A DNA stretch of 44,883 bases from Escherichia phage EEc2 (ON210144.1); one strand, 5' to 3'; counted from the first letter of the stretch, positions 1,460-44,883 are shown. Notes: generated by a model not told the origin, from the sequence alone. Numbers and translations: made by a program.

Positions 1460-1552
1460 GGTGGTAGCTTCTTAGTCTGGATAGGTTAAACCTAGGAGAT
1501 TCTCTTGAGTCTCCTATAATGTAACCTAACTAACTAAATGAGGATTAATAAC

Positions 1553-1906
1553 ATGGCTATGTCTAATATGACTTACTCTCAGGTTTACAACACCGCTCAT
1601 GCTGCATTAGTTGAACGTATCTGGAATGATGATATTGATTGTATCGATAACGCACATGATGCAATCCATGAGGTAGCGGACAGTGCTGTACCAATCTATT
1701 ATGCTGACATCTTCTCAGTGATGGCGAGTGAAGGTATTGATCACTTCTTCGAAGACTCCGGCCTGATGCCAGATACTAAGGATGTAACGGTCGTACTACA
1801 AGCCCGTATTTATGAACAACTCACCATTGATTTATGGGAACGTGTTCAAGATATGATTGTTGCGTACACCACTTACGCTGAGTATTCAGAAGAAGAGGAA
1901 GAATAA
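1553..1906 (+). CDS. ocr: Ocr-like DNA-mimic anti-restriction protein (T7 gp0.3 homolog)
   Basis: Starts MAMSNMTY and carries HDAIH...[19 protein letters not shown]...[13 protein letters not shown]...[15 protein letters not shown] plus an acidic tail, matching T7 Ocr as I recall it; 117 aa. SD GAGGA upstream of ATG 1553. Confidence 0.9.
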
Positions 1907-1907
1907 G

Positions 1908-2021
1908 ATGGAAAAGCTATACAACTTCATCTTTTCAGACGGTGTAACCCTGAAGTGTTCCCTACGATTCGCACAAATTCGTGAGGAAGTACTAGGCACT
2001 ACATACAAACTATTTAGCTGA
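1908..2021 (+). CDS. Hypothetical small early protein (37 aa)
   Basis: ATG 2 nt after the ocr stop with GAGGAAG upstream; translates MEKLYNFIFSDGVTLKCSLRFAQIREEVLGTTYKLFS. Confidence 0.3.
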   Translation: MEKLYNFIFSDGVTLKCSLRFAQIREEVLGTTYKLFS

Positions 2022-2032
2022 CACTATAAGAG
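2012..2032 (+). promoter_or_regulatory. Phage-type promoter variant P0 (ATTTAGCTGACACTATAAGAG)
   Basis: 17/21 match to the window consensus; TATAAG replaces TATAGA at the start site. Lies in the early region upstream of the 2098 gene. Confidence 0.45.
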
Positions 2033-2097
2033 AAGGCTTAACAAGGCGTTACTAAGGTAGCGCCTGATTAAACTTTCACTTACTAGGAGTTAAGACT

Positions 2098-2325
2098 ATG
2101 GATTTAGATAGCATCATTATGGCATTTGCTCTTATTGGCTTAAGCTGGTGCTCCTATCACCTTTACCGTGAGTTCTTATTTGATAAAGCTAAACGCAAAC
2201 TAAGAAAGGAAGGCGGTAATTACCTTCGTTTGAGGGGTGGCTTAGTCGAATACATTGCACCTAACGGCAGGGAATGCGCCATTAACAAAGATGCATTTAT
2301 AGAGACGTGGCATTACATCAAGTAA
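2098..2325 (+). CDS. Hypothetical early protein with N-terminal hydrophobic segment (75 aa)
   Basis: ATG with TAGGAG upstream; N-terminus IIMAFALIGLSW is hydrophobic. Confidence 0.5.
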   Translation: MDLDSIIMAFALIGLSWCSYHLYREFLFDKAKRKLRKEGGNYLRLRGGLVEYIAPNGRECAINKDAFIETWHYIK

Positions 2326-2389
2326 CTAGCCTATAGCCTGCCTGCGTGGGCTATGTGATATTTACTTATCATTATATAAGGTGACTATT

Positions 2390-3274
2390 ATGACTACTGA
2401 AAACATCCTCCTGTCTGTCCGTGAAGCTGCAACTGCTGAGATTAAGCAGCATTTGGATAATATCGGCACTTCTTACATCAAAGTTGGCGCTTGTCTGAAT
2501 GAATTGCGCGGTGATTTCGAAGGCCAAAAAGACTTTTTAGCTTATGTAGAATCAGAGTTCGGCATCAAGAAAGCACAATGCTACAAGCTGATGAGTGTAG
2601 CCCGTGTCTTTGAAGGAGACGAACGCTTTAAAGGTGTGGCTATGCGTGTAATGCTGGCACTCGTTCCTTTCGCTGATGAGAATATAATCATGGAGAAGGC
2701 CGCAGAACTCGCCGCAGATGGCAAGCTGGACACTAATGCCGTAAATGCCCTGATTGATCCTAAGAAAGAGACAAAGGCCGAGACGGTACAATCTAAGGCT
2801 GAGGCGGTAAAACCGCAGGAGAACGCGACTGAGTCCGCAGAATTACAGGAAATGCAAGCGCCGCAGGTAGTGCCACCCGCGAGCGAGCAGGAGGCCGACG
2901 AATCAGCACCTTGGGAAGAGGAAAGCAAGCCGGAAGCGCCTAAGGTCGCGCCACTGGATAACACGGCTAACACCGAGAGTGCCGCTATTGCTGGCCTTCT
3001 GGCACAAATTAAAGCACTGACCGAGCAATTACAGGCAGCTAATGACCGCATTGCCTCCTTAAGCAGCGCACGCGAAAGCAAGAAAGCAGCCGCTCCTATG
3101 CTGCCGCAATTCAAATCTTCCTGCTTCTATGCTCGCTTAGGTTTAAGCGCTGAGGAGGCAACGAAGAAAACAGCAGTTAACAAGGCACGCCGCGAACTGG
3201 TTAAGCTAGGATACGGCGAAGGCCATGAAGCATGGCCCTTAATCTCTGAGGCAGTAGAAGAATTAACTAAGTAA
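2390..3274 (+). CDS. Hypothetical early protein (294 aa), at the position of T7 gene 0.7 but with no kinase motifs
   Basis: ATG 2390 with AAGG 8 nt upstream (track start 2381 is GTG). Central Ala/Glu/Pro-rich low-complexity region and a C-terminal coiled-coil-like segment. Confidence 0.6.
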   Translation: MTTENILLSVREAATAEIKQHLDNIGTSYIKVGACLNELRGDFEGQKDFLAYVESEFGIKKAQCYKLMSVARVFEGDERFKGVAMRVMLALVPFADENIIMEKAAELAADGKLDTNAVNALIDPKKETKAETVQSKAEAVKPQENATESAELQEMQAPQVVPPASEQEADESAPWEEESKPEAPKVAPLDNTANTESAAIAGLLAQIKALTEQLQAANDRIASLSSARESKKAAAPMLPQFKSSCFYARLGLSAEEATKKTAVNKARRELVKLGYGEGHEAWPLISEAVEELTK

Positions 3275-3337
3275 CCTTATCGGTGGCATCTTCTTAGGTG
3301 TCACCTATTAAGGTTTCTTTCACTAGGAGTAAACAAG

Positions 3338-5965
3338 ATGCAAGACCTACACGCTATTCAACTTCAACTTGAAGAAGAAATGTTTAACGGCGGTATCCGT
3401 CGCTTTGAAGCGGACCAACAACGCCAGATTGCATCCGGTAATGAATCAGACACGGCATGGAATCGCCGCTTATTGTCCGAGTTAATCGCGCCAATGGCTG
3501 AAGGTATTCAGGCATACAAGGAAGAGTATGAAGGTAAAAGAGGCCGTGCACCGCGTGCATTAGCTTTCATTAACTGCGTAGAAAACGAAGTGGCAGCATA
3601 TATCACGATGAAAATCGTTATGGATATGCTGAACACGGATGTAACCTTGCAGGCTATAGCCATGAATGTAGCTGACCGCATTGAGGACCAAGTACGTTTT
3701 AGCAAGCTGGAAGGTCACGCCGCCAAATACTTTGAGAAAGTTAAGAAGTCACTTAAGGCAAGTAAGACTAAATCATATCGCCATGCGCACAACGTAGCGG
3801 TCGTGGCTGAGAAGTCAGTAGCTGACCGTGACGCTGATTTCTCTCGCTGGGAGGCGTGGCCTAAAGATACCTTGCTACAAATTGGTATGACCTTGCTAGA
3901 AATACTGGAAAATAGTGTATTCTTCAATGGTCAGCCTGTCTTTCTTCGCACCTTGCGCACTAATGGTGGCAAGCATGGCGTTTACTACTTACAGACTAGC
4001 GAACACGTGGGTGAATGGATAACTGCATTTAAAGAGCACGTAGCTCAGCTGAGTCCAGCCTATGCACCTTGCGTTATTCCTCCGCGTCCGTGGGTTTCTC
4101 CGTTTAATGGTGGCTTTCACACCGAGAAGGTGGCAAGTCGCATCCGTCTAGTAAAAGGTAACCGTGAGCACGTCCGTAAGCTGACTAAAAAGCAAATGCC
4201 AGCGGTTTATAAGGCTGTTAATGCATTGCAAGCCACTAAGTGGCAGGTTAACAAGGAAGTATTGCAGGTAGTAGAAGATGTTATTCGTCTAGACCTCGGT
4301 TATGGTGTACCTTCCTTTAAGCCGCTCATTGACCGCGAGAACAAACCAGCTAACCCTGTTCCTCTTGAGTTCCAACACCTGCGAGGCCGTGAACTGAAAG
4401 AGATGCTAACACCGGAGCAATGGCAGGCCTTCATCAACTGGAAGGGTGAATGTACTAAACTGTATACCGCTGAGACTAAGCGCGGCAGCAAGTCGGCGGC
4501 GACCGTCCGCATGGTAGGACAGGCCCGTAAATACAGCCAGTTTGACGCTATTTATTTTGTATATGCACTGGATAGCCGTTCACGCGTTTATGCGCAATCT
4601 AGCACGCTCTCGCCGCAATCAAACGACTTAGGCAAGGCATTGCTCCGTTTTACCGAAGGGCAGCGTCTTGATAGCGCTGAGGCGCTTAAGTGGTTTTTGG
4701 TGAACGGGGCGAATAACTGGGGTTGGGATAAGAAAACTTTTGACGTGCGCACCTCTAACGTGCTGGATGGCGAATTTCAAGACATGTGCCGCGACATTGC
4801 AGCCGATCCGCTGACCTTCACTCAATGGGTAAATGCTGATTCCCCTTACGGCTTCCTTGCATGGTGCTTTGAATATGCGCGTTATCTGGATGCACTGGAT
4901 GAAGGCACGCAAGACCAATTCATGACGCACCTACCCGTCCATCAAGACGGTAGTTGCTCTGGTATCCAGCACTATAGCGCGATGTTACGCGATGAAGTAG
5001 GTGCGAAAGCAGTAAACCTTAAGCCTTCTGACTTCCCTCAAGATATTTATGGCGCGGTTGCGCAGGTTGTTATCCAGAAGAATTACGCCTACATGAATGC
5101 AGACGATGCAGAGACTTTCACATCTGGAAGCGTCACACTTACAGGTGCAGAACTGCGTAGCATGGCTAGTGCGTGGGATATGATAGGAATAACTCGCGGA
5201 TTGACCAAAAAGCCCGTAATGACACTACCTTATGGCAGCACACGTCTAACCTGCCGTGAATCAGTGATTGATTATATCGTTGATTTGGAAGAAAAAGAGG
5301 CCCAACGAGCTATTGCGGAAGGGCGTACCGCCAATCCTGTACACCCTTTTGATAATGACCGTAAGGACAGCCTGACACCTAGCGCAGCTTATAACTATAT
5401 GACAGCTTTAATCTGGCCTTCTATTTCGGAAGTGGTTAAAGCTCCTATAGTGGCAATGAAAATGATTCGTCAGCTTGCCCGTTTCGCAGCTAAAAGGAAT
5501 GAAGGCTTAGAGTATACCTTGCCTACTGGCTTCATCTTGCAACAAAAGATTATGGCTACTGATATGCTCCGCGTATCCACTTGCCTGATGGGAGAAATCA
5601 AGATGAGTCTCCAGATTGAAACGGACGTAGTGGATGAAACGGCTATGATGGGCGCTGCTGCTCCTAACTTTGTGCATGGTCATGATGCCAGTCACCTTAT
5701 CTTAACAGTCTGCGACCTTGTTGATAAAGGGATTACATCTATCGCAGTCATTCATGATTCTTTCGGTACTCACGCAGGCCGTACAGCCGATCTTCGTGAT
5801 AGCTTAAGGGCAGAAATGGTGAAGATGTATCAAGGCCGTAATGCCCTGCAAAGCCTGTTAGATGAGCATGAAGAACGCTGGTTAGTAGACACCGGAATCC
5901 AAGTGCCAGAGCAAGGAGAGTTTGACCTTAACGAAATCTTAGTATCTGACTATTGCTTCGCATAA
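3338..5965 (+). CDS. Single-subunit DNA-directed RNA polymerase (T7 gene 1 type), 875 aa
   Basis: Motifs [13 protein letters not shown] and HDSFGT and a C-terminal ...CFA match the T7/SP6 RNAP family. TAGGAG SD upstream. Confidence 0.97.
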
Positions 5966-6056: not shown

Positions 6057-6077
6057 ATTTACCGGACACTATAGGAT
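6057..6077 (+). promoter_or_regulatory. Phage promoter P1 (ATTTACCGGACACTATAGGAT)
   Basis: SP6-like core GACACTATAG; predicted +1 G at 6074. First phage promoter after the RNAP gene. Confidence 0.75.
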
Positions 6078-34600: not shown

Positions 34601-34999
34601 AAAGCCTATGTGAACTCTATTGGTCGAGAAGACCAAGATGAATATTTGGAAGAGAAGTTATCGCCTAAAGGGTTGGCCTTTGGTGCAATGGGTATGATGA
34701 GTACAACTGCTGTATTTAGTCTAGGTGGAGACTTCTTAGGTGGCCTAGGTGTTCTACCTTCTGAGTTAGTACAATCCCGTTATGAGGCTGGCTTTCAGAC
34801 TAAGGGTTTGATAGACCAAATACCACTAGTAGGTGTTGGTCAAGATGCATATCGTTTAGCAGATTCTATAACTAAATACGCAGAGGGCGATACAGAAGGT
34901 GTAGATGTGGCACGTAGGGCTTTACGCTTAGTGCCTCTAGCTAATGTAATAGGAATCCAGAACGCATTGCGTTATGGCTTAGATGAACTGGAGGATTAA
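31691..34999 (+). CDS. Large internal virion (core/ejection) protein, gp16-like, 1102 aa
   Basis: GGAGG SD; largest structural ORF, immediately before the tail-fibre adaptor. Confidence 0.7.
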   Translation: MEQDIKTNWAGYVQSTPEPFSIEAAPVSALTIRQRNELQEQVLEAKADADILGAVGAAFQNEWLAFGGKRWYDRATADFTPQPDFEIQPAQREALRFKYGTDMMQTITEGVRSEDELNFRIQNADEDLERNKRIAQAGWVGSVATIGAAVLDPVGWVASIPTGGAAKVGLVGRAVRGAIAAGVSNAAIESVLVQGDMTRDLDDIMVALGSGMAMGGVIGAVARGRATKLSEQGDDRAASIVRSADAGDRYVRAVADDSIGAMRVKGEEVLTEGAFDISSKGEDLLKTLQREGNAIDMTPRRWAGTLSALGTVVHSSQDASVRGLGARLFESPQGLGMQKASASLMQNTNLNRLKSADMNRFNDGFDLWLKENNINPVAGHTNSHYVQQYNEKVWEAVRIGMDESTPKSIRMAAEGQQAMYREALALRQRSGESGFEKVKADDKYMPDIFDSMKARRQFSMHDKEDIIELFSRAYQNGSRKVPKEVADDIARAQVNRVADATLTGQLSFEKAMSGQTKAEYEALMRKAGFSDEEIEKMVEALDNKETRDNISNRAKMSLGLDVTQEYNGIRMRDFMNTNVEELTDNYMKEAAGGAALARQGFSTYQAALNAIDLVERNARNAAKDTKAHAQFEAESAKIRQSEPDYKKAQEKIEELKKRLKLKEKDEAAGLAIDEEIRQMREGLRLIMGKSIDSNPQDLSTKMLRRGRDITGVLRLGQMGFAQLGELANFMGEFGIAATTMALGKQFRFTSKALRNGDGFFRDKNLAEVERMVGYIGEDNWLTTKGARPDEFGDVTTVRGMMAHFDQSMNSIRRAQTNLSLFRMAQGSLERMTNRQIALSFIDHLEGKKIIPQKKLEELGLTQEFMTNLQKHYDANSKGSGLLGFDTMPYAMGETLANAIRRKSGLIIQRNFIGDEGIWMNKALGKTFAQLKSFSLVSGEKQFGRGIRHDKIGLAKKTAYGFALGSIVYAAKAYVNSIGREDQDEYLEEKLSPKGLAFGAMGMMSTTAVFSLGGDFLGGLGVLPSELVQSRYEAGFQTKGLIDQIPLVGVGQDAYRLADSITKYAEGDTEGVDVARRALRLVPLANVIGIQNALRYGLDELED

Positions 35000-35961
35000 T
35001 GAGTTATACTTTCACAGAACATATAGCCAACGGTACGCAAGTAACCTATCCCTTTAGCTTTGCTGGTAGGGATAAAGGTTATCTTCGTGCCTCAGATGTG
35101 ATAGTGGAGTCTCTTCAAGGTAACACTTGGATTGAGGTTACATCTGGCTGGCAACTAACTGGCACGCACCAGATTACTTTTGATGTAGCACCAGTTGCAG
35201 GTTTGAAGTTCCGTATTAGAAGGGAAGTACAAAAGGAGTATCCATACGCTGAGTTTGACCGTGGTGTTACCTTGGATATGAAGTCTTTAAATGGTTCTTT
35301 CATTCATATACTGGAGATTACACAGGAGTTACTTGACGGGTTTTATCCAGAAGGATACTTCATTAAACAGAATGTAAGCTGGGGCGGCAATAAGATTACT
35401 GATTTGGCTGATGGCACAAATCCGGGAGATGCAGTAAATAAAGGGCAGCTTGATGCCATCGACAAGAAGCATACAGATTGGAACGCCAAACAGGACATTG
35501 AGATTGCTGGCCTTAAGGCTGGTATGACTTCTGGTATTGCGCACAGAACTGTTCCTTGGTACACGATAGCCCAAGGTGGTGAGATTTCCGTAAAACCACC
35601 TTATGAATTTCAAGATGCACTAGTTTTCCTTAATGGGGTGTTGCAGCACCAAATTGTAGGCGCATACTCTATAAGCAACAACACTATCACTTTCGCAGAG
35701 CCGCTTGTGGCTGGTACAGAGGTGTATGTGCTGATTGGTAGTCGTGTGGCTACATCTGAACCTAATATTCAGTTAGAGTTGAACTTTGACTTAGTAGAAG
35801 GCCAACAAGTAGTACAGATTGGCTCTGCATTTAAGTACATTGAGGTCTACCTTGATGGATTATTACAACCTAAACTTGCTTATCAGGTAGACGGTGACAT
35901 TGTTACTTTCTCAGAGGGAGTGCCAGAATGCCGGATGACTGCTAAGATTATCACAGCATAA
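34999..35961 (+). CDS. Tail-fibre adaptor protein (homolog of the T7 gp17 N-terminal domain), 320 aa
   Basis: Segment NKITDLADGTNPGDAVNKGQLDAI resembles the T7 gp17 N-terminal RRIVNLANAVDDRDAVPFGQLK motif; no receptor-binding C-terminal domain. Confidence 0.7.
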   Translation: MSYTFTEHIANGTQVTYPFSFAGRDKGYLRASDVIVESLQGNTWIEVTSGWQLTGTHQITFDVAPVAGLKFRIRREVQKEYPYAEFDRGVTLDMKSLNGSFIHILEITQELLDGFYPEGYFIKQNVSWGGNKITDLADGTNPGDAVNKGQLDAIDKKHTDWNAKQDIEIAGLKAGMTSGIAHRTVPWYTIAQGGEISVKPPYEFQDALVFLNGVLQHQIVGAYSISNNTITFAEPLVAGTEVYVLIGSRVATSEPNIQLELNFDLVEGQQVVQIGSAFKYIEVYLDGLLQPKLAYQVDGDIVTFSEGVPECRMTAKIITA

Positions 35962-35970
35962 GGAGGTAGG

Positions 35971-36165
35971 ATGATTAACTCCGAACTGGTAGATAGTGGT
36001 GTGAAGCTTGCGCCACCTGCACTCGTATCAGGTGGGTACTTCCTCGGTATCAGTTGGGATAATTGGGTGTTAATAGCAACATTCATTTATACCGTGTTGC
36101 AAATTGGGGACTGGTTTTATAATAAGTTCAAGATTTGGAGGGAGAAGCGTGAGCGTACACAATAA
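35971..36165 (+). CDS. Holin (T7 gp17.5-like), 64 aa
   Basis: AGGAGG SD; one transmembrane segment then ...IYTVLQIGDWFYNKFKIWREKRERTQ, resembling the T7 holin C-terminal half; syntenic with T7 17.5. Confidence 0.7.
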   Translation: MINSELVDSGVKLAPPALVSGGYFLGISWDNWVLIATFIYTVLQIGDWFYNKFKIWREKRERTQ

Positions 36166-36448
36166 ACATGCAGCTACAGAGGATGAGGTTGGCATTCTGC
36201 ATGGTGCTATTACCAAAATCTTCAATAAGAAAGCACAGGCAATACTGGACACTATAGAAGAAGACCCTGATGCAGCATTACATTTAGTGTCTGGTAAGGA
36301 TATTGGTGCGATGTGTAAGTGGGTTCTTGATAACGGCATTACCGCCACACCTGCTGCACAGCAGGAAGAGTCCAAGTTATCTAAGCGCCTCAAGGCTATC
36401 CGAGAGGCATCCAGTGGTAAGATAATTCAATTCACTAAGGAGGATTGA
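36149..36448 (+). CDS. Terminase small subunit (gp18-like), about 99 aa
   Basis: GTG 36149 with GGAGGG 7 nt upstream, overlapping the holin 3' end; stop overlaps the large-terminase ATG. Assigned by synteny; start uncertain. Confidence 0.55.
   Translation: MSVHNKHAATEDEVGILHGAITKIFNKKAQAILDTIEEDPDAALHLVSGKDIGAMCKWVLDNGITATPAAQQEESKLSKRLKAIREASSGKIIQFTKED
36240..36260 (+). promoter_or_regulatory. Internal phage-promoter-like sequence P9 (CAATACTGGACACTATAGAAG) inside the small terminase gene
   Basis: 18 of 21 positions match consensus, including the full TACTGGACACTATAGAAG; lacks the upstream ATTT. Predicted +1 G at 36257. Confidence 0.45.
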
Positions 36449-38490: not shown

Positions 38491-38772
38491 ATGGCTAATA
38501 ATTATAGTGATCAACCACTAACAGGACGATATGATCGAAAGCAGGAGACGCCTGTAAGTGAAGCGTTAATGCTCCCTGTTGTTACAGAGGAGTCTATTAC
38601 GAAGAAATCCAATGTTATCAATGATGCAACCAAATCTGGCAAACAGAAAGCAGCAATGGTGTGTCGCCCTGTAGGTGGCACTCTTGAGATTGCCATTGCT
38701 ACTGGCAGCAAAGAGGATGCAGATTGGTTGTCTGTTAAAATGGATGGCGTTGGTCTTATTACACCGGCTTAA
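38491..38772 (+). CDS. Small protein, paralog A of a tandem family (93 aa)
   Basis: AAGGAG SD; shares ...INxxxxSGKQKxAMVxxxxxGxxxxIAIAxGSxxxDxW... with paralogs B and C. Confidence 0.6.
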   Translation: MANNYSDQPLTGRYDRKQETPVSEALMLPVVTEESITKKSNVINDATKSGKQKAAMVCRPVGGTLEIAIATGSKEDADWLSVKMDGVGLITPA

Positions 38773-38789: not shown

Positions 38790-39077
38790 ATGTCTAAGTA
38801 TGGCGATGCAGGTACTACTACTGGTCAGGCTTTTCGTGTAAAAGCAGTACAAACTATTGCAACTGCAATCCCTATGCCTATCGTAGCAGAAGCTGACCTT
38901 AAAAAGAAAGATCATCCTATTAATATTGAACACCTATCTGGTAAGCAGAAAGGTGCTATGGTGGTTGTAGATAAGGGAGATAATAGCCTTTATATTGCTA
39001 TTGCACGTGGTTCTGCACCAACTGACCAGTGGGATGTAACTACTATGGAAGCTGTACCTGTAACACCAGGAGCTTAA
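38790..39077 (+). CDS. Small protein, paralog B of a tandem family (95 aa)
   Basis: AAAAGGAGAAG SD; aligns with A and C across HLSGKQKGAMVVVDKGDNSLYIAIARGSAPTDQWD. Confidence 0.6.
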   Translation: MSKYGDAGTTTGQAFRVKAVQTIATAIPMPIVAEADLKKKDHPINIEHLSGKQKGAMVVVDKGDNSLYIAIARGSAPTDQWDVTTMEAVPVTPGA

Positions 39078-39078
39078 T

Positions 39079-39291
39079 ATGCTGGGAGTAACAGGACAAC
39101 GCAATAAGAATGTAGCCACCAAAGTAGTGGCTGATTTAGCTACTGCTGCTACTGTAGAGGAATTACAAGATCAACATAGCTCTATTAACCGTGCTGACCT
39201 TTCTGGTAAACAAGAAGGTTCCGCTGTTATTGTTAAGAAAGAAGATGGGAATTATTCTATCTTTTGTAGCAACAGGAAGCAAGCCGACTGA
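39079..39291 (+). CDS. Paralog C, N-terminal portion (70 aa), terminated by a frame change relative to A and B
   Basis: AGGAG SD; ...DLSGKQEGSAVIVKKEDGNYSIF then stop after 8 non-homologous codons; the homologous continuation is in the +1 frame. Confidence 0.5.
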   Translation: MLGVTGQRNKNVATKVVADLATAATVEELQDQHSSINRADLSGKQEGSAVIVKKEDGNYSIFCSNRKQAD

Positions 39292-39769
39292 TGTGTGGAA
39301 AGAGTTGTCTCCAACAATACCAGAGCAAGAGATGCCTGCTGAATACATTGATATGATTGATGTTCAAATTCATCAAGATTCTGCAAGCAACTTACGCATA
39401 GACTCTTCTCGCACTAGTTTAATACAAACACCAATGTGGGATACTGAAGGTGAGTTGTTATTCCGTAATACACTAAGTGCAACATGTTCTTGTACTATTC
39501 TTGTTGATGGTGCGTCTGGTGTTCGTCAGGATTTTACTTTTAAGATTAATGGACTTTTAGAGCAGGAAGAGCAGTATTATGATATTGACACACTTATGTG
39601 CTCTATTCACTCTGCAACAACAACTAATGGCCTTACCTTGTGTATGCCAGATGCTAAAAGTGCAAAGACTAATAAAGTGGTAGTTAAGATCGACACTATG
39701 CAGTCATTAGCTATGAGCTTTGATCTTAACTTCCTTGTAGAATGGACGTCACCAACGAGGTTACTATAA
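39245..39769 (+). CDS. Paralog C, C-terminal portion in the +1 frame (about 174 aa from the first ATG)
   Basis: +1-frame ORF whose beginning (...SFVATGSKPTDVWKEL) continues the paralog alignment; internal ATG at 39245 has only a weak purine-rich SD. Confidence 0.4.
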   Translation: MGIILSFVATGSKPTDVWKELSPTIPEQEMPAEYIDMIDVQIHQDSASNLRIDSSRTSLIQTPMWDTEGELLFRNTLSATCSCTILVDGASGVRQDFTFKINGLLEQEEQYYDIDTLMCSIHSATTTNGLTLCMPDAKSAKTNKVVVKIDTMQSLAMSFDLNFLVEWTSPTRLL

Positions 39770-40221: not shown

Positions 40222-40371
40222 ATGAAAAAGCTGTTTAAGTCTAAGAAGGTTGTAGGTGCACTGGTTGCACTTGTTATTGCTCTTGTTTCTGTAGGTCTTG
40301 GTGTAGACCTTGGCTCTGGCACGGAATCCTCTGTGACAGATGTGGTCTGCCAAGTGATCACCTGTGAATAA
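40222..40371 (+). CDS. Small single-pass membrane protein next to the lysis genes (49 aa)
   Basis: AGGGAG SD; translates MKKLFKSKKVVGALVALVIALVSVGLGVDLGSGTESSVTDVVCQVITCE. Below the ORF-track cut-off. Confidence 0.4.
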   Translation: MKKLFKSKKVVGALVALVIALVSVGLGVDLGSGTESSVTDVVCQVITCE

Positions 40372-40585
40372 GTTTCTAGAAGTTCTGGCAGGTCTTATTG
40401 GCCTGCTTGTCTCTGCTAAGAAGAAACAAGAAGAGAAGGAGGCACAAAGTGAAGCGAATCATGTTAGTGACAACCCTTCTGATTGGTTCGCTGACCACTT
40501 CCGGGTGTCAGCAGGCGTTACCAGAGAAAGCAATGGTGAAACCTCTGAGGCCGACGCTGACGGAAGTTTACGAGGTAGACGATAA
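40364..40585 (+). CDS. Putative i-spanin (Rz-like), 73 aa
   Basis: N-terminal TM segment FLEVLAGLIGLLVSA then a charged periplasmic part; overlaps an out-of-frame lipoprotein ORF. GTG start, weak SD, short for an Rz. Confidence 0.5.
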   Translation: MNKFLEVLAGLIGLLVSAKKKQEEKEAQSEANHVSDNPSDWFADHFRVSAGVTRESNGETSEADADGSLRGRR

Positions 40586-40658
40586 GGTCTGCTTTAGTAA
40601 TCCTGACGCTACAAAACTTGGTTTGTACATTCTCTCGCTAGAACGCGGATACAATTAA
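40449..40658 (+). CDS. Putative o-spanin (Rz1-like lipoprotein), about 69 aa
   Basis: Starts inside the Rz-like ORF in another frame and extends past it; signal-like LVTTLLIGSLTTSGC with lipobox-like Cys. GTG 40449 has AAGGAGG 6 nt upstream; alternative ATG at 40461. Confidence 0.5.
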   Translation: MKRIMLVTTLLIGSLTTSGCQQALPEKAMVKPLRPTLTEVYEVDDKVCFSNPDATKLGLYILSLERGYN

Positions 40659-40687
40659 TACATAGCTTTATGTATCAGTGTCTTACG

Positions 40688-40708
40688 ATTTACTGGACAC
40701 TATAGAAG
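40688..40708 (+). promoter_or_regulatory. Phage promoter P11 (ATTTACTGGACACTATAGAAG), tailspike promoter
   Basis: Exact consensus; +1 G at 40705; 82 nt upstream of the tailspike 1 ATG. Confidence 0.85.
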
Positions 40709-40789
40709 AGGTAAGATAGCGCCGTTCTTTTGAGCGGCCTATTACTAGCCAATCTTCATAGGGAGGGTTGGAAAGTAATAGGAGATAGC

Positions 40790-42688
40790 ATGGCTAAATT
40801 AACCAAACCTAATACTGAAGGAATCTTGCATAAAGGGCAATCTTTGTATGAGTACCTTGATGCGAGAGTTTTAACATCAAAGCCGTTTGGTGCTGTAGGT
40901 GACGCCACTACTGATGATACTGAGGTTATAGCTGCTTCATTAAACTCTCAGAAAGCTGTCACAGTCTCAGACGGTGTATTCTCTAGCTCTGGTATTAATA
41001 GTAATTACTGTAACTTAGACGGCAGGGGTAGTGGCGTGCTAAGTCACCGTTCAAGTACAGGTAACTACTTAGTATTTAACAATCTACGTGCAGGTCGCTT
41101 AAGTAATATTACGGTAGAAAGTAATAAGGCGACTGATACAACTCAGGGACAGCAGGTATCCCTTGCTGGTGGAAGTGATGTTACTGTAAGTGACGTTAAC
41201 TTCTCAAACGTTAAAGGTACTGGTTTCAGTTTAATCGCATACCCTAATGATGCGCCACCGGATGGACTTATGATTAAAGGCATTCGAGGTAGCTATTCCG
41301 GCTATGCTACTAATAAGGCAGCCGGATGCGTACTTGCTGACTCCTCAGTTAACTCCCTCATAGATAACGTCATTGCTAAGAACTACCCTCAGTTCGGAGC
41401 AGTAGAGTTGAAAGGTACAGCCAGTTACAACATAGTCAGTAATGTTATAGGGGCAGATTGCCAGCATGTAACTTACAACGGCACTGAAGGGCCAATAGCT
41501 CCCTCTAATAACCTTATCAATGGGGTAGTGGCTAATAATCCTAAGTATGCAGCGGTTGTTGCAGGCAAAGGTAGTACGAACTTAATATCAGATGTGCTCG
41601 TAGATTACTCAACCTCTGATGCTAGGCAGGCTCATGGTGTTACAGTAGAGGGTTCTGATAACGTCATAAATAATGTGCTTATGTCAGGATGTGATGGTAC
41701 TAACTCTTTAGGACAAAGTCAGACTGCTACAATTGCGCGCTTTAGAGGTACAGCTAATAACAACTATGCGTCTGTATTTCCTAGCTACAGTGCTACAGGT
41801 GTTATTACTTTCGAATCAGGCTCTACCCGTAACTTCGTAGAGGTAAAGCACCCTGGCAGGAGAAACGACCTTCTCAGTTCTGCTAGTACTATTGACGGTG
41901 CAGCTACTATTGACGGCACTAGTAATAGTAACGTAGTGCACGCACCTGCCTTAGGGCAGTACATAGGTAGTATGTCAGGCAGGTTCGAATGGCGGATTAA
42001 GTCCATGTCACTCCCTTCAGGCGTTCTTACTTCTGCCGATAAGTACAGAATGCTTGGAGATGGTGCTGTGTCATTAGCTGTAGGTGGGGGCACTTCTTCT
42101 CAAATTCGCCTATTTACTTCTGATGGTACTTCTCGTACAGTGTCCCTCACCAACGGTAACGTGCGTCTTTCTACCAGTAGCACAGGCTTTTTGCAGTTAG
42201 GTGCTGATGCAATGACCCCAGACAGTACTGGTACATACGCATTAGGTTCCGCCAGCCGAGCATGGTCTGGCGGTTTTACTCAAGCAGCATTCACTGTTAC
42301 CTCAGATGCTCGGTGTAAAACAGAACCTCTTACTATCTCAGATGCCTTACTGGATGCTTGGTCTGAAGTTGACTTTGTGCAGTTTCAGTATTTGGATCGT
42401 GTTGAGGAGAAGGGTGCAGACTCAGCTAGATGGCACTTCGGTATCATCGCTCAGCGAGCTAAGGAGGCTTTCGAACGTCACGGTATAGATGCACATCGCT
42501 ATGGCTTCTTGTGCTTCGACAGTTGGGATGATGTATACGAGGAAGATGCCAATGGCTCTCGTAAACTGATTACACCAGCAGGTTCCCGCTACGGTATTCG
42601 TTACGAGGAAGTACTGATATTAGAGGCTGCGTTGATGCGGAGGACTATTAAGCGTATGCAGGAAGCACTAGCTTCCCTGCCTAAGTAA
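40790..42688 (+). CDS. Tailspike 1: beta-helix polysaccharide depolymerase with C-terminal intramolecular-chaperone autoprotease domain, 632 aa
   Basis: ATG 40790 with GGAG upstream (track start 40730 is TTG). N-terminal FGAVGDATTDDTEVI pectate-lyase-like motif; C-terminal 128 aa starting SDARCK match the self-cleaving chaperone domain of endosialidases and T5 L-shaped fibre. Confidence 0.85.
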   Translation: MAKLTKPNTEGILHKGQSLYEYLDARVLTSKPFGAVGDATTDDTEVIAASLNSQKAVTVSDGVFSSSGINSNYCNLDGRGSGVLSHRSSTGNYLVFNNLRAGRLSNITVESNKATDTTQGQQVSLAGGSDVTVSDVNFSNVKGTGFSLIAYPNDAPPDGLMIKGIRGSYSGYATNKAAGCVLADSSVNSLIDNVIAKNYPQFGAVELKGTASYNIVSNVIGADCQHVTYNGTEGPIAPSNNLINGVVANNPKYAAVVAGKGSTNLISDVLVDYSTSDARQAHGVTVEGSDNVINNVLMSGCDGTNSLGQSQTATIARFRGTANNNYASVFPSYSATGVITFESGSTRNFVEVKHPGRRNDLLSSASTIDGAATIDGTSNSNVVHAPALGQYIGSMSGRFEWRIKSMSLPSGVLTSADKYRMLGDGAVSLAVGGGTSSQIRLFTSDGTSRTVSLTNGNVRLSTSSTGFLQLGADAMTPDSTGTYALGSASRAWSGGFTQAAFTVTSDARCKTEPLTISDALLDAWSEVDFVQFQYLDRVEEKGADSARWHFGIIAQRAKEAFERHGIDAHRYGFLCFDSWDDVYEEDANGSRKLITPAGSRYGIRYEEVLILEAALMRRTIKRMQEALASLPK

Positions 42689-42695
42689 GCAACAG

Positions 42696-42717
42696 GCAGT
42701 GCGTAAGCACTGCTTTT
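42696..42717 (+). terminator. Short hairpin plus T-run between the two tailspike genes (weak terminator or attenuator)
   Basis: Perfect 7-bp stem GCAGTGC-GTAA-GCACTGC followed by TTTT, 8 nt after the tailspike 1 stop. Confidence 0.5.
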
Positions 42718-42773
42718 CACGCAACTTTTCTTAAAGGTTATCATGGTGGTAGCCTTTCAGAAGAGGAGGTTAC

Positions 42774-44486
42774 ATGCTTCAAAGATTAAGTGCTTACTTG
42801 GTGAAGTACAAGAGTAAACTAACAGGTACTATTGAGCGCCTGCTATCTGATAAACTATCGGATACAATAGATGTTGCGGATTTTGGAGTTACTCCATCTT
42901 CCAATGACAACAGGCAAGCACTTCAAGCTGCGTTCAATGCAGTCAGAGTGTTAGGCGGTGGCACTGTATTAGTCACTAAAGCTGGAAAATACAAACTCAG
43001 TGGTACTGTTGAGATATTTGCTAATACACACTTCAAGGTGGCTAAAGGTGTAACATTTGTACGTGACTACGAAACAGGAGATACGCTATTCAGATTATCA
43101 CAAGGGCAAGCTAGTAATGTAACAGTCAGTGGAGGTATCTATGAAGGCAATGGTCACACTAAGGGAGATACACCTTTTGTAGTATTTGCATCTACTAGTA
43201 ATAATGATTTGAAGTTTGAAGGCATAACAGTTAACAATGTAGTGGACTACCACGCCATAGATTTAGCAGATTGGAACAACGTAGTTATTCGTGATTGTAA
43301 ATTCCTAGGTTTTAAGAATACAGGCAGTCGTAACTTCTCAGAGGCTATACAGTTAGACCCAGGTCTTATTACAGTTGGTCACTATGTACAGTCAAGTGGT
43401 ATGCTGGTGGAGAATTGCTATGCTGGTCCAAACACAGAATCAGGGTTTGGAGGTTATGGTGCACTAATTGGAAATCACGCCTCAGCTTACGGTGTACAGG
43501 ACAACAATATCCGTATCTTGAATTGCACTACAGATGGTGCTCTCTTTGCAGGTGTACGTGTATTTAACTGGAAAAACTGGACAGTGCGTGGTTGCACATT
43601 TAGGAACTCTAATGCAAGAGGTGTCCATGTTACACCTGTCTCATCTCAGACTAAACCGCAGGGTACTCGACAAGGTAGTATTGTAGATTGCACTTTTGAT
43701 GGCGTAAGGACACCAGTGCTAATTGCTGCACCATCTTGGCCTTTTACCGATATTAGTGACATTTGGCATGACCATATTGAAATTTCTAATAATACTATGA
43801 TCCTCACAGAGGATGTATCCTATGGTGTAGATGCAAGGTGGTGTAAGAATTTAATTGTAAAAGGTAATACAGGCTCTGGTGGCTTAGGGTTAATCGGTTT
43901 ACGCTTTGGGACAAAATACCACATCGAAGGTAATACTTGGGAAAACGGAAGAGGTAGTGGGATTTGGTTAGGTGAGTCTGATGCTACTACATTCATTGGT
44001 ACTGGTTTATCAGGAGAAGGTATACTTAGTCGTAATATCTTCTCTAAATTAGGGCAATATGGTATTCATGTAAACTGCAAGGCTAGCTGTCTAGTGATTA
44101 AAGCCAATAATATGAAGGAAGTATCTACAGCTGAAGCAGGTAGGCACTTCATTAGTATAGACACAGGGGCTAACAACATCCTAGTAGAAGGTAATATTGG
44201 AGTAGACGGAGAAAGCCCTAACAAGCCAAGCCTTGGTATTCGTGTTACTTCTTCTTGTTCCAATATTAAACTCATTGGCAATGATTGCTATGGCACACAG
44301 GCGCCTCAGAATAACCAAGGAGTTGGTTCTAGTACGGTGATTGTTTATGGGCTAAATGGCAACCCTACAACTTTAGGCGTAGGTGCACCTGTAGGCTCTT
44401 TAGCAACTGATATCAATGGTTCTGGTGGTAGTACATTGTACGTTAAAGAATCTGGTACATCTGCTCAAGGTTGGGTTGCAAAGTAG
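42774..44486 (+). CDS. Tailspike 2: second beta-helix depolymerase-like protein, 570 aa
   Basis: Strong SD GAGGAGG; N-terminal DTIDVADFGVTPSSNDNRQALQAAFNA...GGGTVLV motif; Gly/Asn/Thr-rich repeats consistent with parallel beta-helix; no T7 gp17 N-terminal domain. Confidence 0.8.
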   Translation: MLQRLSAYLVKYKSKLTGTIERLLSDKLSDTIDVADFGVTPSSNDNRQALQAAFNAVRVLGGGTVLVTKAGKYKLSGTVEIFANTHFKVAKGVTFVRDYETGDTLFRLSQGQASNVTVSGGIYEGNGHTKGDTPFVVFASTSNNDLKFEGITVNNVVDYHAIDLADWNNVVIRDCKFLGFKNTGSRNFSEAIQLDPGLITVGHYVQSSGMLVENCYAGPNTESGFGGYGALIGNHASAYGVQDNNIRILNCTTDGALFAGVRVFNWKNWTVRGCTFRNSNARGVHVTPVSSQTKPQGTRQGSIVDCTFDGVRTPVLIAAPSWPFTDISDIWHDHIEISNNTMILTEDVSYGVDARWCKNLIVKGNTGSGGLGLIGLRFGTKYHIEGNTWENGRGSGIWLGESDATTFIGTGLSGEGILSRNIFSKLGQYGIHVNCKASCLVIKANNMKEVSTAEAGRHFISIDTGANNILVEGNIGVDGESPNKPSLGIRVTSSCSNIKLIGNDCYGTQAPQNNQGVGSSTVIVYGLNGNPTTLGVGAPVGSLATDINGSGGSTLYVKESGTSAQGWVAK

Positions 44487-44497
44487 TAGGAAGTTGA

Positions 44498-44647
44498 ATG
44501 CCATTAATCAAATCAGTTAAGCAAAGTGCTGTACGCCAGAACACAGAAGAACTTATTCAATCAGGACGTGACCCTAAGCGAGCCTATGCGATTGCCAAGG
44601 ATGTACAACGTCGTGCTATGAAGAAACCTTCTGCATCTTCTGCGTAA
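44498..44647 (+). CDS. Hypothetical small basic protein near right end (49 aa)
   Basis: AGGAAG SD; translates MPLIKSVKQSAVRQNTEELIQSGRDPKRAYAIAKDVQRRAMKKPSASSA. Confidence 0.35.
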   Translation: MPLIKSVKQSAVRQNTEELIQSGRDPKRAYAIAKDVQRRAMKKPSASSA

Positions 44648-44717
44648 GCAGGTTAATATCTTAGTGTACACAAGGGCAGACCTAGGTTTGCTCTTAGTGT
44701 AATCCAAAGGAGGTAAC

Positions 44718-44846
44718 ATGCTGAAAGATGGTTGGGTTTCATATGACCCTACAGACCCTACGAATTGGCTACAGGTTATCGCTATAGCTTGTGCAGGTAG
44801 CCTATTGGCTGCCATGATGTATTCATTATGGATGTACACAAAGTAA
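44718..44846 (+). CDS. Hypothetical small membrane protein near right end (42 aa)
   Basis: Strong SD AAAGGAGG; translates MLKDGWVSYDPTDPTNWLQVIAIACAGSLLAAMMYSLWMYTK with one hydrophobic segment. Confidence 0.4.
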   Translation: MLKDGWVSYDPTDPTNWLQVIAIACAGSLLAAMMYSLWMYTK

Positions 44847-44883
44847 CCAAAATCAAAATTTTGATATAGGCGTGTGTCAGCTC

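Follow-up and report, generated by a model that had tools for sequence, protein, structure and literature searches.

Which polymers do two dissimilar, adjacent tailspikes of a single phage act upon, and how are both carried on the same tail? The question is raised by Escherichia phage EEc2 (ON210144.1), of which a stretch of 44,883 nucleotides was analysed on one strand; this whole stretch, referred to here as the window, amounts to an entire K1-5-like podovirus genome of the genus Vectrevirus, to which K1-5 itself belongs. Two large open reading frames (ORFs) near its 3' end, where the receptor-binding module typical of the genus lies, hereafter spike 1 and spike 2, had been singled out in a first-pass annotation as a pair of β-helix tailspikes served by a separate adaptor. 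Since 2001-2007, the textbook account of how K1-5/SP6 phages widen their host range has been a pair of spikes carried on a gp37-type adaptor. Taken as a whole, EEc2 is, on a favourable but by no means settled balance, a two-spike system of the K1-5 type, combining a K5 lyase with a probable K2-capsule depolymerase. The elements on which this account is built are as follows.

34999..35961, + strand: adaptor (K1-5 gp37-like), 320 amino acids, with a T7 gp17-type N-terminal domain; docking role per Latka 2019 (PMC6872550)
40790..42688, + strand: tailspike 1, the K5 (heparosan) lyase KflA, 632 amino acids, assigned by identity to K1-5 gp46, PDB 2x3h and a full-length match to PHROG 14895
40790..40810, + strand: docking heptapeptide MAKLTKP of spike 1, an exact match to the K1-5 gp46 peptide
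42302..42685, + strand: C-terminal intramolecular chaperone (Peptidase_S74) of spike 1 (PF13884, E = 1.5e-14, residues 505-565)
42774..44486, + strand: tailspike 2, a PfbA-like right-handed β-helix of 570 amino acids without a C-terminal chaperone, predicted K2-capsule depolymerase
42774..42806, + strand: docking undecapeptide MLQRLSAYLVK of spike 2, identical to K1-5 gp47 MIQRLGSSLVK at 7/11 positions
42828..44480, + strand: exchanged cassette with no DNA similarity to K1-5, its flanks being 98% and 93% identical (blastn)
43251..43478, + strand: spike 2 residues predicted to form an active or binding centre (H160, E190, Q193, D195 and H235; motifs YHAIDLA, SEAIQLD and GNH)

The two spike genes are intact and different, and lie in tandem at the positions first proposed, 40790-42688 and 42774-44486. 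Both encode β-helices, as had been predicted: spike 1 matches the solved K5 lyase (2x3h), and spike 2 gives a confident right-handed β-helix model. Their description as otherwise unrelated is borne out by a best BLASTP E-value of 0.37 between them, and their supposed richness in Gly, Asn, Ser and Thr is real (35.8% for spike 1 and 37.4% for spike 2, versus 24.1% for the other large + strand ORFs). The N-terminal motif xFGAxGDxxxDDTxxI ascribed to both is literal in spike 1 (PFGAVGDATTDDTEVI, residue 32), but degenerate at the homologous place in spike 2 (DFGVTPSSNDNRQAL, residue 36).

The identity of spike 1 is unambiguous. It shares 625 of 632 residues with K1-5 gp46, and residues 1-505 match the PDB entry 2x3h, 'K5 lyase', with E = 0. 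Translation starts at ATG 40790, which is preceded by the ribosome-binding site AGGAG and agrees with the gp46 start; the alternative TTG at 40730, rejected on these grounds, is simply the start that yields the longest possible ORF. Spike 1 corresponds to an enzyme already known and characterised, its heparosan β-eliminase activity being assumed from 99% identity. Relative to KflA of coliphage K5A (PDB 2X3H), it differs by only a few substitutions, and the mature KflA chain stops where the S74 domain sets in (the crystallised chain ends at query residue 505), and the C-terminal region also matches the endosialidase and phi29 gp12 chaperone domains 3gw6 and 3gud. Because the crystallised chain ends at this point, and by analogy with endosialidase and phi29 gp12, the chaperone is presumably released after trimerisation, by cleavage between TVTS and DARCKTEP. 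A near-identical K5-lyase body with its S74 domain is also found in PDB 9vvr_A, a solved 'tail spike protein' of 843 residues, from its residue 242 on; the N-terminal region of ~240 residues in that protein indicates that the same enzyme also exists in an anchor-fused architecture.

Neither spike carries the T7 gp17 N-terminal domain, there being no Phage_T7_tail (PF03906) match at E ≤ 0.01 in either of them. It resides, as the first-pass annotation held, in the separate 320-residue product of 34999-35961 (Phage_T7_tail, E = 3.5e-6, residues 3-153), which also matches PHROG 2710, 'tail fiber' (1.8e-148), and is homologous to the 'tail spike attachment adapter' of related podoviruses. This adaptor is conserved across Vectrevirus, being 99-100% identical in EC120 and T147P1 and 87.5% identical in LL11. 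In K1-5, the adaptor is bound by gp46 via the heptapeptide MAKLTKP and by gp47 via the undecapeptide MIQRLGSSLVK (PMC6872550). The proposal that the EEc2 spikes have no anchor holds, therefore, for a gp17-type domain, but not in general: each starts with a short docking peptide of K1-5 type (MAKLTKP in spike 1, MLQRLSAYLVK in spike 2). The simultaneous presence of both spikes on a virion has been shown only for K1-5, K1E and SP6 (PMC6872550).

The modular arrangement of the SP6/K1-5 type envisaged at the outset is likewise upheld by the genus and by the 99% identity of spike 1 to K1-5 gp46; indeed, every defining feature of the K1-5/SP6 dual receptor-binding protein system that can be tested by sequence is present in EEc2. 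In common with the K1-5 module (adaptor gp37, K5 lyase gp46 and endosialidase gp47), EEc2 has the gene order, the gp17-type adaptor domain, an identical MAKLTKP peptide, a homologous second-slot undecapeptide, and a conserved promoter, intergenic spacer and set of downstream small genes. Where it departs from K1-5 is in the body of the second spike, which is a 570-residue PfbA-like β-helix rather than the 811-residue endosialidase gp47; the latter is a β-propeller enzyme according to the literature, and spike 2 has no C-terminal S74 chaperone. Salmonella phage SP6 similarly combines an adaptor with two spikes and conserved docking peptides (PMC6872550), although it differs in genus and host, and the likeness is drawn from its published description rather than its sequence.

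As an arrangement, the dual-spike locus of EEc2 is already known and adds nothing. The region 40300-44883 is 99.0% identical at the DNA level to Escherichia phage 6948 and 96-98% identical to 6949, EEc4, LI10_P3/P5, EC120, 101101UKE1, LL11 and others, all of them Vectrevirus. The pair of spike genes has been deposited about 20 times at 96-100% identity, including in LL11 (as gp52/gp53), vKMB47, 6948/6949, EEc4, Sem1-4 and LI10_P3-P5, none of which differs substantively from EEc2; at least 17 phages in GenBank have it. The papers on LL11, vKMB47 and the Sem phages already present the pair as tail fibres or depolymerases, with the K5 lyase as one of the two. It is because an identical cassette has been deposited this often, and described as two depolymerases, that we count the finding as known. 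The spike 2 protein is itself on record as an exact match, 'hypothetical protein EEc2_0055'. No substrate assignment for the second spike was found in the LL11, KMB, Sem or Gaborieau papers or in reviews, and no K2-specific phage enzyme was found described in the literature. What would be new here is confined to the proposal that spike 2 acts on K2 and the mapping of its candidate catalytic centre.

The limits of the module that distinguishes EEc2 from K1-5 are sharp. DNA similarity to K1-5 extends from 40300 to 42827, taking in the K5 lyase gene, the 85-nt spacer and spike 2 up to codon 18, and returns at 44481, 6 nt short of the stop codon of spike 2; from these breakpoints, the exchanged unit is precisely the spike body. 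Among 50,697 phage records, this body is found at an identity of at least 93% only in about 20 Vectreviruses, below which there is a gap to the tailspikes of Gram-positive phages, such as SPO1 (gp18.3) and B. pumilus, Streptomyces and Staphylococcus phages, at <30% identity. Homologues with 45-51% identity carry other N-terminal domains for attachment to the virion, either PF09008, the head-binding domain of P22, in those on E. coli and Rahnella contigs, or PF18668, a domain of the CBA120 TSP1 type; this identifies the homologues as bona fide virion tailspikes, and the spike 2 body as a mobile tailspike module. Residues 3-38 of spike 2 (window 42780-42890) align with a neck segment of these homologues, L.S..G.GD.LV.VKQP..GA...TQHDKN....D..DFG, which is shared by proteins with P22-type or CBA120-type N-terminal domains. 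The docking peptide of the second slot may be what is left of this shared linker, and the site at which recombination joins modules would thereby be accounted for.

Partial copies of spike 2 with at least 90% identity are also recorded from Yersinia pseudotuberculosis (WP_048901948 and WP_048901938), and full copies have been entered in databases as 'E. coli' proteins from contigs of ~44 kb; such bacterial-labelled copies are most likely phage genomes or contaminating reads, not prophages. In the deposited sequence of vKMB47 (vB-Eco-KMB47, OR424385; 3275-5045), nt 104-158 of the spike 2 gene, equivalent to about 42877-42931 in the window, are duplicated in tandem (55 bp), which breaks the reading frame and accounts for the annotation of the gene as two fragments. 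The duplication is probably an assembly artefact.

A confident AlphaFold2 (AF2) model of spike 2, with a predicted local distance difference test (pLDDT) score of 88.1, was built with a 30-sequence alignment; single-sequence AF2 (pLDDT 48.7) was unusable. The protein is a right-handed parallel β-helix homologous to the core of Streptococcus pneumoniae PfbA (PDB 3ZPP/4MR0), and the fold matches also include the O-antigen spikes of HK620 and CBA120. It is a member of the PfbA-like β-helix family (CAZy 'non-classified') and not an endosialidase. The suggestion in the LL11 record that it is 'distantly related to K1 endosialidase' was rejected, as only the N-terminal ~38 residues align with K1-5 gp47; no Pfam match to an S74 chaperone domain was found in spike 2. 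In the 30-sequence family alignment, H160, G233 and H235 are invariant, whereas E190, Q193 and D195 are at least 90% conserved. Pairwise alignment pairs H160, Q193, D195 and H235 with H293, Q331, E333 and H377 of PfbA, which the authors of the PfbA crystal structure placed at the bottom of an electropositive groove and named a 'putative active centre'; Q296 and K338 of PfbA are not kept (D163 and T200 in spike 2). The resemblance is thus to the β-helix core and the residues at the centre of its groove. Beyond these, the two proteins are only ~23% identical, PfbA being a sortase-anchored monomeric adhesin without known activity, while spike 2 has a phage docking peptide and ~230 further C-terminal residues. 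Other relatives of the pair are appendages of Gram-positive phages, namely SPO1 gp18.3, the tailspikes of B. pumilus phages and Andhra gp14. By analogy with its homologues, spike 2 is probably both located on the virion and enzymatically active.

For the polymer on which spike 2 might act, published host ranges provide the best guide, principally those of Gaborieau et al. (bioRxiv 10.1101/2023.11.22.567924), in which capsule types are genomic calls; what follows from this source relates to the rows of ten K2-typed strains, the rows of 12 K5 strains and two parts of the matrix in full. LI10_P3/P4/P5, which carry the K5 lyase together with spike 2, were isolated on strain LI10, of sequence type (ST) 131, serotype O25:H4 and ABC (ATP-binding cassette)-capsule type K2. 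In T147_P1/P7/P9/P10, spike 2 (97% identity) sits behind an unrelated first spike, so that its effect can be separated from that of the K5 lyase. T147_P10 and T147_P9 were positive on nine of the ten K2-typed strains (ECOR-46, ECOR-66, IAI67, NILS42, NILS58, NILS65, NILS73, NILS74 and LI10), a correlation in which many scores are of the weakest grade (1). T205_P4/P5, with the K5 lyase and a different second spike, were positive on 0/10 K2 strains and 10/12 K5 strains. Within the two full parts of the matrix, 6/7 K2 strains were positive versus 12/~179 others (Fisher p ~2e-6, and ≤4e-6 for any plausible row count). The 12 non-K2 positives are mostly O6 strains, which are also hit by a T147 Kayfunavirus, with a few K5 strains and members of an unnamed capsule cluster '5'; the O6 positives probably reflect the first spike.

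That first spike, of 630 amino acids in T147_P9/T147_P1 (1523-3415), starts with MARLTRP, a variant of the docking heptapeptide. The extra hosts of the T147 phages are almost all O6 (ECOR-56, NILS29, NILS59, NILS74, NILS79, 536 and IAI82), which suggests that this protein is an O6-antigen-specific spike in a 'capsule' slot.

An independent pair of phages was described by Markuskova et al.: vKMB47, with the K5 lyase and spike 2, scored 4 on CFT073 (O6:K2:H1) and gave haloed plaques, and vKMB14, with the K5 lyase and another second spike, scored 0 on this strain, both phages scoring 4 on three shared strains. vKMB47 plates at full efficiency on CFT073 despite the frame-breaking duplication in its deposited spike 2. 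The capsule of CFT073 is a K2/K62-like polymer containing glycerol phosphate (PMC10156666), and such a polyanion would suit an electropositive groove of the PfbA type. A published study of phages against the K2 capsule of CFT073 concerned unrelated siphoviruses and BASEL phages, and has no bearing on spike 2. From these host ranges, we consider it somewhat probable that K2 is the capsule that spike 2 recognizes.

Could spike 2 instead be an O-antigen-specific tailspike of the P22/HK620 type, and not a capsule enzyme? Its closest homologues (45-48% identity) bear the P22 head-binding domain and come from prophage-bearing E. coli and Rahnella contigs, and the O-antigen spikes of HK620 and CBA120 are, as noted, among the fold matches. 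Against this, the K2 strains concerned are of types O1, O4, O6, O25, O75, O107 and O-negative, and even with O6 set aside the lysed strains have only K2 in common; moreover, the other spikes characterised at this position in the genus are all specific for capsules. We rejected O-antigen specificity on the diversity of O types among the susceptible K2 strains, and regard this alternative as the most improbable of those considered.

Several observations nevertheless weigh against a K2-cleaving spike 2. Many of the K2 scores are of the lowest grade, one K2 strain (NILS75) was negative with both T147_P10 and T147_P9, T147_P1 and T147_P7 scored 0 on five K2 strains, and the T147 phages were additionally positive on non-K2 strains (O6, some K5 and capsule cluster '5'). 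The matrix evidence comes from the T147 and T205 phages rather than from the true equivalents of EEc2, the LI10 phages, and its K typing is genomic, not serological. If the vKMB47 duplication is real, growth of that phage on CFT073 is not creditable to spike 2. PfbA, for its part, did not act as a lyase on any of the glycosaminoglycans and pectins assayed, and is considered to be an adhesin. Together with the weakness of most K2 scores and the frame-shifted spike 2 deposited for vKMB47, this would accord with spike 2 being a non-cleaving, PfbA-like adhesin for reversible attachment, or a decaying passenger gene. Yet about 20 independent isolates carry an intact copy of the gene at 96-100% conservation, the residues of the putative centre are kept across a family whose members are otherwise 21-26% identical to spike 2, halos are produced by vKMB47 (propagated on a K2 host) and by the Sem phages, and host range segregates with the second spike. 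An adhesin or passenger is unlikely, though the least so of the alternatives.

A last point against K2 concerns classical coliphage K5: according to a review citing Nimmich 1994, phiK5 disrupts the capsules of E. coli K5 or K95. EEc2 might then be essentially that phage and spike 2 a K95 depolymerase, adjoining the K5 lyase as expected for phiK5. The typed hosts that can be attributed to spike 2 (CFT073, LI10, ECOR-66 and others) are, by contrast, all K2; the capsule types called in the host-range study do not include K95. We think it quite unlikely that K95 is the substrate. As to the dual polysaccharide specificity that the first-pass annotation had anticipated, the K5 part has been demonstrated elsewhere, via K1-5 gp46; for the second spike we infer it, with K2 as the likely target.

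A mechanism consistent with K2 specificity can be proposed. The trimeric adaptor would mount on the tail via its T7-gp17-like N-terminal domain and offer two docking sites, for spike 1 through MAKLTKP and for spike 2 through MLQRLSAYLVK, such that each of the six tail vertices may carry two different tailspikes, co-occupancy being extrapolated from K1-5. Spike 2 fills the K1-5 endosialidase slot, its sequence from codon 18 up to the stop codon having been exchanged as a cassette. On a K5 cell, the trimer of KflA, having shed its S74 chaperone after folding, would degrade heparosan by β-elimination. On a K2 cell, the groove of spike 2 would bind the teichoic-acid-like chain of galactose and glycerol phosphate, which would be cleaved at the predicted H160/E190/Q193/D195/H235 centre. 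Either activity would bring the virion down to the outer membrane, and both K5 and K2 strains of extraintestinal pathogenic E. coli (ExPEC) would be open to infection.

Two further elements flank the spike 1 gene.

40688..40710, + strand: SP6/K1-5-type phage RNA polymerase promoter, ATTTACTGGACACTATAGAAGAG, upstream of spike 1; function assigned from consensus only
42696..42713, + strand: GC-rich hairpin, then TTTTCACGC, in the 85-nt inter-spike spacer; sequence GCAGTGCGTAAGCACTGC TTTT

The promoter core, GGACACTATAGAAG, lies at 40695-40708, just 5' of spike 1. With up to two mismatches, there are 11 such cores in the window, all on the + strand, versus 0.33 expected; they start at 6064, 8582, 9430, 13132, 13595, 14826, 18015, 23488, 36247, 38352 and 40695, one of them falling inside the ORF at 36104-36448, upstream of the terminase gene. 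A sigma-70 promoter scan of the spike region gave fewer sites than in shuffled sequences and was not used. At the position of the hairpin, LL11 has an annotated terminator, and the spacer is conserved with K1-5; the hairpin is possibly a partial terminator or an RNA-processing site, and may lower the transcript dose of spike 2.

Upstream of the spikes lie three tandem paralogous small genes (38491-38772, 38790-39077 and 39079-39291), with the common core ...SGKQ(K/E)(A/G)(A/S)(M/V)V...IA(T/R)GS..., of which K1-5 and LL11 have two copies only. The RefSeq label 'acetyl-CoA acetyltransferase' for these genes has no Pfam match in support. The third paralogue has, in the window, an extra C-terminal domain of ~160 residues. 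At ~39262 (within 39079-39769), EEc2 reads TTTT where phage EEc4 reads TTT, and the extra T splits the gene into a 70-residue ORF and an overlapping 192-residue ORF, versus a single 229-residue ORF in EEc4 and SHAK7163; the split reflects either a sequencing error in the homopolymer or a genuine pseudogene. Downstream of spike 2, the small ORFs at 44498-44647 (49 residues) and 44718-44846 (42 residues) resemble K1-5 genes 48 and 49 in size and position; LL11 has an extra HNH endonuclease inserted after the first of these, which the EEc2 window lacks. A comparison of the first 600 bases of the window with the last 600 revealed no terminal repeat.

The practical value of the EEc2 locus lies in its second spike. 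K2 is a main capsule type of ExPEC (CFT073/ST73 and part of ST131). If the K2 assignment is true, spike 2 would be a reagent for K2 typing and capsule stripping and, since the limits of the exchange are known to the codon, a building block for redirecting therapeutic phages of the K1-5 type; it would also provide a biochemical handle on the orphan PfbA-like β-helix family. More tentatively, and with less than even expectation on our part, spike 2 may be the first identifiable depolymerase for E. coli K2/K62, and the first PfbA-like member to which a substrate can be assigned, namely a teichoic-acid-like polyanion containing glycerol phosphate. Were this so, its His/Gln/Asp/His centre would cleave such polymers, possibly at the phosphodiester, and PfbA and the SPO1-, Andromeda- and Andhra-type appendages of Gram-positive phages would act on teichoic acids.

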